64,000 nucleotides of DNA, taken from Azolla caroliniana (Eukaryota > Plantae > Polypodiophyta). The stretch covers positions 35,960,001 through 36,024,000 of the forward strand of contig JBHGNT010000001.1 in NCBI GenBank assembly GCA_043228905.1, given 5' to 3'. The translations under genes were made by a program, and so were the position numbers. The notes below the pieces were generated by a model. It was not told where the DNA came from. It did not search any database and saw only the letters and a list, made by a program, of their open reading frames with translations. Shown one piece after another: positions 24,142-30,299 of this stretch (the first letter of the stretch is position 1; each line of letters begins with the position of its first letter).

Positions 24142-24331
24142 GTGTGTGTGTACCTGTGCGTGTGCGTGTGCGTGTGTGTGTGTGCGTCTGCGTGCGTGCG
24201 TGCGTGCGTGCGTGTGTGTGTGTGCGTGTGTGTGTGTGTGTGTGTGTGTGTGTGTGTGTGTGTGTGTGAGAGAGAGAGAGAGAGAGAGAGAGAGAGAGAG
24301 AGAGAGAGAGAGAGAGAGAGAGAGAGAGAGA
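24142..24331. repeat. Compound microsatellite (GT)n/(GCGT)n followed by (GA)32
   Basis: Seen directly; the (GA)n tract spans 24268-24331. Confidence 0.97.
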
Positions 24332-27300
24332 TACTGAACATTCAATCATAGATGATCCTGAGCAACTTGCTTGGGACTCATTGGCTATGGAGGTTCTGAA
24401 TTTGGATGTTTGGACATGGTTGCAAGGGAATGATCCAGGTTTTACCTTCCAATATGCTCAACATAGACAAACATGGAGTCGGTTAGATAGAATGTATGTG
24501 ATGCATGATGATTCTTTTTTACCGACATCACTTCGTATGAACGTTCTACAAGATATTGGAACTTCAGATCACTTTCCTATTTGCTTGGAGGTGTGTAATC
24601 ATGCAATTGACATGTATAAATCTTTACTTGGAAAGCCTCCACTACGCTTTAACTCTTCTCTTTTGCTTCAACCTCACTTTGATTCTCTCATGGAGCAAAT
24701 TTTGGTAAATTTTTCTCAACAAGTGAATCTTAAAGGAGTTAAAGCATGGGATATCACATTATGAACCATTAACATCATTCATCGTATGTATGGAGTAACC
24801 AATGCTCAACGGAAAAGAGGTCTTATTCGACAATTCACACACGTTCTCTCTAGGTGTAATGCCTTATTGATACCTACACCATTAGATGAGGAGCTTTTGG
24901 ATATTCAGAGTCAATTGCATGTTATTATTTCTCAGTTGCAATGCCAAAGTTATCGTTATGCTAAGATGCGACAACTCAGGGAAGGACTCATTGATAATCA
25001 ATGTCAATCTCATTTGTTTTTCCAAGCATTACATCCTACTTATGCTCGATCTAATGTGGTACATGTGAAGCAAGGGGATGAATTGATAGTGGATCCTACA
25101 ACAATAATTGACATATGTCTTGATTACTTTAAGGAGTTGATTGGTCCACAATTATTAATGACATATGAGGTGAGTAGAGCATGTCATGAGTTTTATGATG
25201 TGGTTGGATGTATTGTGCCTGATCTCATTAGTCGTGAATTGGATGCGGATTTCACTGAGGATGAGGTGGATGTAGTTTTAAGGCATCTTCCTAGTGGTAA
25301 GAGCCCTGGTTGGGATGGCTTGACAAATGAAGTTTTTAAGAGATATTCCAACATTTTAAAGGGGCCCTTGACTTTGATGTTTCAACAGTCTTGGGATTCT
25401 GGTTGTATGCCTCAAGCTTGGAAGATTGGTCTAATTAAACTAGTTCCAAAGGTGGCATCTCCTGAGTCATTTCATCAATGGAGACCTATTTCTTTGATGG
25501 GGGGGTTGTACAAGATATTTACGGAGGTCTTGGCAAATAGATTACAAAGGTATTTGCCAAAGTTGATACACCCCGCCCAATATGGTTTTATTGCAGGTAG
25601 AAATATATTGCATAATGTGTTGAATGTTCAAATGGCCATGGATTATGCTCGGAACACTCATCAAGAATTGATTAATAATGGTGCAATTAGATTTGGAGAA
25701 AGCTTATGATCATGTTAATTGGTCTTTTGTTTCTGGGTTAATGCATACAATGGGCTTTGGACCTCGTATGTCTCGCCTCATATTTTTATTAGGACAAGAT
25801 GCAGTGTCTCGAGTAATGCTTAATGGGGGAGTTACATCAGATATTGTCCTCACAAGATCCGTTCGTCAAGGATGCCCTCTTAGCCCATTGTTGTTTGCTA
25901 TTGTTACTCATCCTTTGTTAGTGATGCTATGAAGACTTGCAATAAATGGTGACATTGTGGGTTTACACCTTCCGTCCGGAGGGCAAATAGTAGCACAAGC
26001 TTTGGTGGATGATTCTTTCATGTTTTTATAAGCCTCACGGGAGAATCTTGAGAAGGGGATGCTTGTATGGAATCAGTTTGCATTGGCTTCTGGATTACAT
26101 ATTAATTGGAGGAAGTCTAGTCTCATATCATGCACTGAAAGGGATTTGGAATGTTTAGGATGGCAAGGATCCGTGGTGAAGAAAGGCTCTATTTTTCGAC
26201 ACTTGGGCTATCCATTAGGAATGAATGTTACAAATGGTCAATTGATTGAATGGATGTCTAGTAAGTTGAGGGATAAGTTCATGTATTGGAAGTCACAATC
26301 TTGGCCCTTTCATGTGCGCTTGAAGGTTGTACAATGTATTATGGAACCCATGATATTATATTACTTGCCATTATTGCCATGGACAAAGAAGGCGTTGAAT
26401 TCTGTTTTGCAACCTCTTCGATATTTGTTGTGGAAGAAGAGGGATAAGATGGGAATCACATGGATTGGTTGGAATCATCTAGCAACCCCTAAGCAATTGG
26501 GGGGGGTTGGAATATTGAACTTATCTATGCATATGATGGATCATAGATTTTCATTATTACAAGACATGTGTTCAAACTCACAACCATGGATATCTATTGT
26601 TCGATATTTCATTGAGAACAAGGGTTTAACACATGGGAGGACAACGATTAAGGCTTCATGGTGGCAATTACTGAATGGATGTATTTCACTTAGGATTCCG
26701 GGTTCTTCATGTGTTCAACACTTAGTTACCTCATGGCAAGAAGCACTCTTGTTATGTGTATGGAAACCATCATCTAGTAGAGAGCATTGTAAGTCTTTGC
26801 AAAAAGAGTTACTTGTGTCGTCTCGGTTATTATGTTGGTTAGGAAAGGAGAGATTGTGTTCTCAATTTAATCGTTTGTTTCGTTTGGGGGTCAAAGAGGT
26901 GGGAGATATAGTTGAGGTTCCATCTCAAAGAATTTTGGAGTTTACTGAAGCACGACAATTATTATGCATCCCGCCTAATTATGGGTTTATTTGGCAACAA
27001 CTACAGAATATTGCATTGATGCAAGGTCCCTTACCTCTACAAACAGGAGAACAACCGTGGATTGATTGGAGTTTAAGGGGTCAAACACCATTGTTACAAG
27101 TGACTACTAATCTTTTGTATCATTGTTCCGTTGAATCTCTTAGATGGTTATCATCTAAGGCTGAAGAAGAATGGAAAATACACAAATATGATCATGGGTG
27201 GTGGCAGATCTTACAACGTAGTTGGCATTATAAATTGCCACTTGTTGCAAAGGTATTCATTTGGAGAGTTTTGATCGGAGGATTGCCTTTGGGATTAGCT

Positions 27301-27850: not shown

Positions 27851-30003
27851 TACACATCACGAAATGGTTATGGTGCAATTACATTTGGAAAAAGCATATG
27901 ATCATGTTAATTGGTCTTTCCTCTCAGGTGTGCTGTATAATATGGGGTTTGGTCCTCGTATGTGTCGACTTATCTTTTTGTTAGGGGAAAATGCAACCTC
28001 TCGTGTGATGCTTAATGGCGGAGTCACTCCGAAAGTGTTTCTTACTAGATCCGTGCGGCAAGGATGTCCACTAAGCCCATTATTATTTGCTATTGTTACA
28101 CATCCTTTGTTAGTAATGTTGTCAAATCTTGCGGCCAGTAGTGATATTGTGGGTTTGCATCTTCCTTCTAGTGGACAATTAGTGGCATAAGCATTGGCAG
28201 ATGATTCTTTTATGATTTTACAAGCCTCAAAAGAAAATCTTAAAATGCGTATGCAAGTTTGGGATCAATTTGCTTTGGCTTCAGGGTTTTATATAAATTG
28301 GAGGAAGTCTTGCCTTATTTCTTGTACGGAGAGTGATTTGGAATGTTGGGATGGCGAGGGTCAGTGATTGCACAAGGTTCAATTTATCGACATTTGGGTT
28401 ATCCATTGGGCATTGATGTTACAAATGTTCAATTGATTGATTGGATTGGTAGTAAATTGAGGGACAATTTTATGTATTGGAAGTCTCAATTATGGCCCTT
28501 TCATGTACAACTCAAAGTGGTGCAATGTATCTTGATACCCATGTTATTATATTTTTTGCCTTTACTTCCTTGGACTAAGAAGGCATTACAAAGCATGTTA
28601 CAACCTATTCGGTTCATGTTGTGGCGGAAGGGAGAAATGATGGGAGTTACATGGATTTCAAGGGACCATTTGGCTACTCCTAAAAGGTTAGGTGGTGTAG
28701 CAATATTGGATTTGGAAAGACATTTGATGGCTCGTAGATTTATATTATTACGAGATATATGTCAACAAGATCAACCATGGATATCTATGATGCAATATTT
28801 TATTGAGCATGAAGGATTGGTGCATGGGAAAACAAAGATTCAAGCATCATGGTGGTGACTACTGAATGGAAGTATTCCTCTAAAGATTCGACATTCTGTA
28901 TGTGGACAACATTTGGTAAGATCGTGGCAAGATGCATTCTCTCTTTTTGAATGGGGACCATCAAGTGATCGAGAATATTGTAATTCATTACAAAACGAAT
29001 TGCTTGTTTCTTTTCGAGTGTTGTTTTGGCATGGGAAAGAGAAGTTGAGATCTCAATTCAATTGTTTATTTCGATTGGGGATTGTACATTTGGAAGATGT
29101 GGTTGATAATGAATCTCAAAGGTTGTCGGATTTTGAAGATGCCAAGAGATGGTTATGTATTCCCCCAAATTATGGATTTATTTGGGAGAAATTACATGAT
29201 ATACCATTGTTGCAAGGATCTTTCCCATTGAAAACCAATTTTGCAACTTGGGTAGATTGGCGGTTACAAGATGGTACACGCTTATTATAAGTCACTACAA
29301 ATATATTGTATCATCATGCGATGGCATCATTATCTTGGCTATCTCCTAAAGCAACGAAGTTGTGAAATGTATATAAGTCACATGCAAGGTGGTGGAAAAT
29401 ATTACGTGGTTGGCATTCCCATCTACCATTTCGTGCAAAGGTATTCATATGGAGAGTCATGATTGGTGGGCTCCCATTAGGTTCGGTCTTAAAGAGATGA
29501 GGACTAGGGTCTGGCACTTGTTTCTTTTGCACCGTTCCATTGGAGGATAGTACACATAGGTTCATTAAATGTCCTATAGCATGTACCATTTGGAAGTACT
29601 TATCGGACATTTGGCAAGTTTTAACCCGTTGTTGTTTGAGACCTCAACAATGGGTTTTTTCTCAATATGTTCAAAGTGGATCAAATGATGAGATGGAGAT
29701 ATTGTTCCAATTTTAACGTTATTGGGGTCTACAACGCAATTGGAATATGCGTAATGCTTTCATGTTTGATAATAGACATGGGGTGAAAGCCTATATAAAG
29801 AAGCTTAAAGGTATTCTCATGTGGAATTTTTGGATGTTAGAGCATGTGGGGATCATTTCCTCAAATGCATATTCAGGTTTTTTCATAGCATTACAGAACG
29901 TGCCTCTCCCTACATAGGCATATGATAAGTAGAGGAGACTAAGAAGCGTTGTAACTAAGTGAATTTTACATACAATTAATATAATTGTGTGCTTTTACCA
30001 AAA
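27851..30003 (+). mobile_element. L1-like LINE copy B (same family as copy A, 5'-truncated within RT), disrupted
   Basis: Collinear with copy A from ~25655 onward (VQLHLEKAYDHVNW, RQGCPLSP, ALADDS, zf-RVT) but with many substitutions. It has the same 3' terminus, attaatataattgtgtg.ttt.accaaa, followed by (GA)4 and G24. Confidence 0.92.
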
Positions 30004-30299
30004 GAGAGAGAGGGGGGGGGGGGGGGGGGGGGGGGTTAATGGGAGACATTGTATTAAGCAAAATGGGGGATAATACAATAGTAAATCTACTAATAAACAA
30101 TATAACTAACATTCATAATTCATTACATGAGGAGGGTATCGGGTTATATGGAACGTTATACATGTATTTTACATAGGAACCTAGAATAATTTGTTATGGT
30201 TTATATGGAACGTTATAGATGTATTTTACATAGAAACCTAGAATAATTTGTTATGAGAGGAGTTTGAGTGGGATATCACAAAGTATCCATTACCATTAA

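Follow-up and report, generated by a model that had tools for sequence, protein, structure and literature searches.

Why two copies of a retrotransposon should lie head-to-tail within a single microsatellite is the question raised by a 64,000-nucleotide stretch of the Azolla caroliniana genome (assembly GCA_043228905.1, contig JBHGNT010000001.1, positions 35,960,001 to 36,024,000 of the forward strand), here called the window and numbered from its first letter. The two copies, A and B, are long interspersed nuclear elements (LINEs) which, judged by their sequences, are dead 5′-truncated members of two subfamilies of one plant L1-clade lineage. Relatives in other assemblies are frequently bordered by (GA)n as well, and we find that (GA)n is most likely the insertion target of this lineage and not just a tail. 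Along the forward strand the order is (GT)n, (GA)32, LINE A, (GA)11, LINE B, (GA)4 and G24; the part from (GA)32 onwards had been claimed in an initial annotation made from the sequence alone, and inspection of the sequence and repeat scans bore it out. The features of the locus, in which ORF is an open reading frame, APE an apurinic/apyrimidinic-type endonuclease and RT a reverse transcriptase, are as follows:

24142–24267 (no strand): imperfect (GT)n/(GTGC)n tract from the repeat scan, the left part of a compound host microsatellite
24268–24331 (+): (GA)32, at the 5′ junction of copy A
24332–27828 (+): LINE copy A, 5′-truncated inside the APE endonuclease, with RT and zf-RVT, ending in 3 A
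27791–27818 (+): predicted 3′-terminal RNA stem-loop of copy A (z −4.27)
27829–27850 (+): (GA)11 separating A from B
27851–30003 (+): LINE copy B, 5′-truncated inside the RT, ending in 4 A
29969–29991 (+): predicted 3′-terminal RNA stem-loop of copy B (z −3.22)
30004–30035 (+): (GA)4 (30004–30011) followed by G24 (30012–30035), the right part of the host microsatellite

The (GT)n tract stands directly upstream of (GA)32, and the host site of the stack is therefore a compound (GT)n(GA)n(G)n microsatellite; a LINE terminus was looked for upstream of the (GT)n tract (24142–24267) and none was seen. Tracts of at least five units in the window comprised three of GA and one of TC, two of these being at the A/B junctions, and in the rest of the window (GA)≥4 (at least four units) was nearby at 57 of 23,160 sampled positions (0.25%); the tract counts for the window were 20 for AT, 6 for CA and 6 for GA. 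Because GA tracts are this rare, the position of the A and B junctions at GA is more than chance. An unrelated 5′-truncated L1-type LINE at 55024–58917 (−), which has several stops and a long branch in our tree, served as an internal control, and a search at either of its ends for a GA tract or other microsatellite found none.

To place the two copies we used the best 80 of 98 matching metagenome contigs (L-numbered), from which all flank counts below were also drawn. Copies A and B run in one direction; an alignment of 2149 columns gives them 71.4% identity, and the common terminus with 3–4 As proposed for them was recovered, with 80.7% identity over 57 nt followed by 3 A in copy A and 4 A in copy B. 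Their 5′ truncation points differ, as had also been proposed: by comparison with the full-length contig L002, A begins at about residue 148 of ORF2, within the endonuclease, and B at about residue 588, within the RT. The reading frame of copy A is broken by a frameshift near 25675 and by three in-frame stops (24762, 25930 and 26029), its ORF2 stop being at 27727–27729, and that of copy B by several stops and a 1-nt frameshift (ORF2 stop at 29915–29917); RVT_1 was matched in the broken ORF2 pieces of both copies and zf-RVT in those of A. As identity to L002 is 94% for B but 71% for A, the two belong to different subfamilies, with other subfamilies being 57–61% identical to A and B. Thus the description of two diverged copies of one family stood as regards a single lineage and did not stand as regards a single master, and the view that B is not a simple recent tandem duplicate of A was upheld; at 71% identity and with different subfamilies, we rejected simple tandem duplication of A. 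The (GA)11 between the copies was not templated by the element, L002 having no GA run at the cut point of B.

Outside the window, (GA)≥4 was found within 25 nt after 28 of 44 3′ termini (64%; 9/15 when only low-coverage contigs were taken) and TC after 0/44, while AT tracts followed a single terminus (1/44) and CA tracts none (0/44), though these are as common as or commoner than GA in the window. Most termini carry a short run of A, and the gap between terminus and tract was 0–6 nt in 20 of the 21 long-tract ends outside the window. The association was seen in seven of nine terminus types, namely A (4/10), B (6/8), L003 (1/1), L004/7 (4/4), L012/13/17 (9/10), L019 (2/3) and L021 (2/6), the other two being L027 (0/1) and L031 (0/1). 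In run X1, 19 contigs exit the terminus with the majority sequence A9(GA)8 (agreement 0.52). We also observed that the last C of the element reads T where GA follows directly (L008, L053, L056 and L074) and is retained in L026, a pattern as from CpG decay.

At the other end, (GA)≥4 precedes 13 of 33 5′-truncation junctions (39%), or 11/33 with a stricter distance and 10/25 in low-coverage contigs, as compared to TC at 2/33, which makes the orientation of the tract nearly constant at both ends; one junction is an inversion. Against a background of (GA)≥4 at 344 of 32,356 flank positions (1.1%), which was set up with the 5′ ends in mind and serves only roughly for the 3′ ends, the binomial p for the 5′ count was 1e-17, p-values here overstating independence because the contigs come from a few related assemblies. 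This count excludes 28 contigs starting inside the element, 3 without a close reference, 1 with a duplicate flank and 15 that are near-full-length; in the last group 5′ ends were placed by eye and GA could be an encoded leader; GA stands at the apparent 5′ end of 11 of them, which represent 10 distinct sites, while three others start within the element and GA is absent from L031. The 13 GA-capped junctions lie at 13 different element positions, the reference has no GA run at their cut points, their tracts are up to 25 units long, and 12 of the 13 have no family terminus upstream, L038 alone having a weak one. Because these junctions fall at 13 positions, 12 of them without an upstream element tail, (GA)n is most likely a target and not just a tail. 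Microhomology as a source of the 5′ GA was rejected, there being only a few matching letters at the reference cut points. Run X2 held one contig with a further GA-capped 5′ junction, at 27878. The presence of GA at the 5′ junction showed no significant dependence on how closely a copy matches the reference (9/19 vs 4/14, p 0.31). The two junctions with (TC)n instead of (GA)n (L009, 5–38; L058, ~190–210) are possibly an inversion or an assembly join, and at the 5′ junction of L017 (1–291) there is an inverted element piece that resembles L1 twin priming.

Stacks like that in the window recur: 4 of 24 other GA-followed termini with a readable flank run into a same-strand copy of the family (L008, L009, L055 and L072), the remaining 20/24 running into non-family DNA, and one stack joint (27828→27354) was listed for run X1. 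The family preference proposed in the initial annotation was partly supported, in that GA was found at both ends across many loci with varied truncation points and recurrent stacks (28/44, 13/33 and 4/24), and the outcomes named there as refuting it did not materialize: most 3′ flanks are microsatellite, those at the 5′ side depart from random sequence, and other assemblies show the arrangement again. Very short (~40–95 nt) A-type 3′ fragments were also seen behind other subfamilies between GA runs (L009 ~4040–4076 and L072 ~736–830).

Several results weigh against GA tracts as the target. No (GA)≥4 is present at 20 of 33 5′ junctions, two of the 33 having TC instead, nor at 16 of 44 3′ ends; L027 and L031 (one copy each) are without GA and L021-type ends have it in only 2/6; and the ends of L006, L011 and L024 grade from A-rich sequence into GA, as expected from poly(A) decay. 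In addition, when both ends were scored in 12 truncated copies, GA was at both only in L003 and L056, at the 3′ end only in L005, L013, L017, L029, L052 and L009 (first terminus), at the 5′ end only in L049, and at neither end in L026, L045 and L075. The order of insertion at the A/B locus is likewise open to objection: that B inserted before A is weakly suggested because A is at 2.4% distance from its nearest collapsed contig (L001) and B at 5.3–5.5% from L002, L008 and L025, and these distances are to contigs that need not be the sources of A and B. With regard to the pairing of ends, 5 of the 6 cases with GA at the 3′ end only are high-coverage contigs and possibly mosaics; some high-coverage contigs are flanked by uninterrupted host coding sequence (Sm protein, URO-D), and 5′/3′ pairing in such contigs is unreliable because they may be RNA-derived or graph mosaics. 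Many of the non-GA 5′ ends may have arisen when old copies were broken by later deletions or insertions. Taken together, the GA preference is strong but not strict (64% of 3′ ends and 39% of 5′ junctions). Host coding sequence stands near 3′ ends of the family in L001 (1673–1999, intronless Sm protein), L016 (6786–7331, URO-D), L024 (6380–7663, G-patch/GCFC) and L009 (5627–6301, helicase-like), these being either insertions near genes or RNA-derived or mosaic contigs.

What kind of element is this? Several contigs hold full-length members, with an ORF1 of ~470–490 aa (counted from the first ATG) and an ORF2 of 1277–1286 aa. Pfam scans found Exo_endo_phos, RVT_1 and zf-RVT in five of five full ORF2s, zf-CCHC in five of five ORF1s and weak matches to DUF4283 in three of the five (one above the curated cut-off); no RNase H domain was found in the full-length members so scanned. 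The best match of ORF2 in the PDB was human L1 ORF2p (E 4e-51). The closest proteins overall were unnamed (up to 87% to A and up to 95% to L002), and the closest named ones were those of the fern Adiantum nelumboides (60–63% in the RT region), then Ceratopteris. A placement of the RT relative to L1 and Tx1 had been called for, and in a quick IQ-TREE analysis (66 rows, midpoint root, no outgroup) the family grouped with fern and liverwort LINEs, joining Adiantum (support 99), then Ceratopteris (99) and then Riccia (95), apart from all 11 animal rows (plant/animal split 96), none of which is labelled Tx1 or Kibi. On the basis of its APE-RT-zf ORF2, its DUF4283/CCHC ORF1 and an RT that falls with plant L1s, the family is a plant-type L1-clade LINE, and its lineage is most likely restricted to ferns. 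In four public runs, between 4,656 and 10,280 contigs match A at 80% likeness, and in all four the summed contig depth on A was greater at the 3′ end by a factor of 6 to 10, a pattern that fits a repeated 5′-truncated family and is not a copy number.

Some features of the full-length members deserve mention here. The ORF1 stop and the ORF2 start overlap by coordinates in L002, L012, L021 and L031, and this overlap, which is not an in-frame stop, suggests a possible termination-reinitiation; among the inverted repeats of five full-length members, of which the five longest were listed for each, none paired the ORF junction with the 3′ untranslated region (UTR). The 5′ leader segments of L002 (55–260), L007 (1–140) and L008 (1164–1370) closely resemble one another, though their ORF2s are only ~60% alike, and the leader of L004 differs from that of L007 despite 88% likeness; exchange of 5′ UTRs or mosaic assembly is a possible cause of this pattern.

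If GA tracts are the target, how might they be recognized? The endonuclease keeps the catalytic residues of L1-EN (E, D-N, D, D-H), and its model from an alignment-based fold resembles an L1-type APE (pLDDT 94.6), the top matches being to L1-EN (TM 0.80). Its hairpin loop is one residue longer than that of human L1, with a loop motif conserved across the lineage including Adiantum, and hairpin-loop grafts alter the nicking profile and target choice of L1-EN (PMC1950540). We infer that GA would be recognized by the family's own endonuclease. At the 3′ end, strong folding of a predicted terminal hairpin was limited to types A, B and L021 (z −4.3, −3.2 and −2.4), with 9 of 12 folded termini weaker than z −2; its pairing was kept in 80.4% of cells as compared to 67.2% in shuffled controls (0/500) and 27–54% in slid controls, the structure having been taken from B and the sequences being related.

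Based on all of this, we consider it very probable that (GA)n is the insertion target, whether by endonuclease choice or by RNA pairing, and likely, with somewhat less assurance, that copies are flanked by (GA)n due to the ORF2 endonuclease nicking the (TC)n strand of GA tracts and priming reverse transcription there. The ORF2 protein (ORF2p) would bind the element RNA near the predicted 3′ stem-loop and nick the pyrimidine strand within a (GA)n tract, with copying starting a few A's from the element end; copying would then halt early, and with its 5′ end joined to the far half of the tract the new copy would come to lie between two runs of GA. The flanking GA tracts would become new targets, such that copies could stack head-to-tail, and at the A/B locus B would likely have come first, A then entering the tract on its 5′ side. 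The remaining insertions would land at A-rich or purine-rich sites in ordinary L1 fashion.

The main rival to endonuclease recognition, which we regard as unlikely, is that elements are transcribed through into the GA tract and that the resulting (GA)n-ended RNA pairs with any nicked (TC)n strand, for which an ordinary L1 endonuclease that cuts the pyrimidine strand would be enough and from which a self-sustaining bias would follow. GA at both ends, in one orientation and with stacking, would be expected under this rival too; several termini have 0–1 A before the tract, the endonuclease model is plainly L1-like, and base pairing between the RNA 3′ end and the target has been named as a contributor to L1 integration (PMC1950540). 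However, within a subfamily the number of A's ahead of the tract can be anything from 0 to 6, and non-GA ends often carry long A-rich tails (Spearman −0.59 for the tendency of such ends to longer tails, partly by construction), such that a polyadenylated template fits better than a fixed read-through tail.

Two other accounts dispense with a GA target. Insertion at short purine-rich sites, with the target duplication and poly(A) tail later growing into (GA)n by mutation and slippage, would explain why non-GA 3′ ends are purine-rich (mean 0.73 vs 0.50; 8/16 at ≥0.8) and why graded A-to-GA tails exist, and an origin of microsatellites from LINE tails is established in mammals (PMC3812793). We nevertheless think it improbable, as it must repeatedly yield the same unit at both ends, including the longest 5′ tracts; moreover, the non-GA 5′ junctions are not purine-enriched (0.55, p 0.17, n=17), and the compound site in the window reads as pre-existing. 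Finally, (GA)n could be an element-encoded tail only, with 5′ tracts and stacks being the tails of upstream copies or assembly joins across GA. The contigs are indeed short-read assemblies, several high-coverage ones being flanked by apparently spliced host genes and perhaps mosaic; the join A–(GA)11–B in the window is unbridged in independent reads (27770–27861 is masked as repeat); and L038 does have its weak upstream terminus. But a junction between tract and element cannot itself arise from a join inside a GA tract, nearly all GA-capped 5′ junctions (12/13) are without an upstream terminus, the signal is kept in low-coverage contigs (10/25), and 16/44 termini are without any GA tail, all of which leaves this account very improbable indeed.

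The genes neighbouring the stack are of land-plant types. There are two full L-type lectin receptor kinase genes and one partial one, at 5767–8115 (+), 13983–14618 (+) and 31644–33764 (−), the partial gene following a retroelement-like ORF (11851–13683) that had no Pfam match and by eye resembles a long terminal repeat (LTR) element gag/protease. An aldo-keto reductase gene with low-complexity insertions (20317–21267, −) starts ~3 kb from the LINE stack, and exons of an ABC (PDR-like) transporter lie further to the right of it (43324–48918, −).

Sequence-specific APE retrotransposons have been reported mainly from the animal Tx1 and R1 clades (PMC4640811), and how such elements recognize microsatellites has been described as poorly understood (PMC3812793). 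In the literature searched we found no report of a GA-targeting land-plant LINE; Repbase, subscription papers and supplements lay outside this search and could hold a mention. Thus, in the available parts of two fern genome papers (PMC12868710 and PMC6786969) retroelements are mentioned only as repeat content, and no land-plant case is named in those of PMC5203782, PMC3747384, PMC4640811, PMC9977147 and bioRxiv 2022.06.16.496473. We see an even balance for and against the broadest reading of our results, that an APE endonuclease recognizing (GA)n arose independently in an L1 lineage of ferns whose sister group is formed by Adiantum members. On this reading the lineage would be the first among land-plant LINEs to target microsatellites, it would have converged with Kibi on one target, and sequence specificity in APE elements would have arisen a third time, besides Tx1 and R1. 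Independent origin in a plant, on the duplex that Kibi targets, together with intact full-length members and subfamilies that seemingly differ in GA association, would open the determinant to endonuclease assays and loop swaps. If true, such an origin would also matter for understanding the part that GA microsatellites and LINEs play in shaping the genomes of ferns, and an RNA-templated integrase of plant origin that is directed to a repeat could be gained from it.

Among known systems, the family shares with land-plant L1s an ORF1 with DUF4283, the usual plant ORF1 marker (PMC5203782), and a zinc knuckle, and an ORF2 with APE, RT and zf-RVT. It differs from flowering-plant L1s, for which one survey listed poly(A) ends in 224 of 233 families and ends in other repeats for none (PMC3472496, Table 1), in that most ends here are a few A's and then (GA)n; in green algae, the ends of 8 of 15 L1 families are microsatellite units, for example (CA)n (PMC3472496). 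Tandem arrays of 5′-truncated copies are formed through nested insertion by the green-plant L1-clade elements Zepp and ZeppL (PMC8226300). Zepp, however, targets its own copies and clusters at centromeres, whereas in the fern family a GA tract stands between copies, subfamilies are mixed in stacks and most copies are dispersed; we saw no Zepp-like insertion into the body of its own copies, the stacks being joined through GA tracts. A possible likeness to stringent-type LINEs (the monocot L1 lineage and SART1; PMC3472496) lies in the conserved 3′ end, with a predicted hairpin and putative compensatory changes, but unlike in those the predicted hairpin is strong in only some terminus types. By the measure that target specificity requires one sequence type in >20% of flanks (PMC4494074), the fern family, with GA in 64% of 3′ and 39% of 5′ flanks, would count as target-specific. 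The closest likeness in target is to Kibi and Koshi (Tx1 clade, teleost fish) and crocodilian Tx1 families, APE-type non-LTR elements that lie in (TC)n, (TTC)n or (TTCC)n/(TTTC)n microsatellites (PMC4494074, PMC3812793), and the TC/GA duplex that Kibi targets is also the probable target of the fern family. Kibi, Koshi and Tx1 were described from animals, and we do not file the fern family under Tx1, in view of its ORF1 type and its tree position among fern and liverwort LINEs, the plant-type ORF1 arguing against membership; any likeness to Tx1 and Kibi would be convergent, because the element belongs with plant L1-clade LINEs and not with animal sequences.

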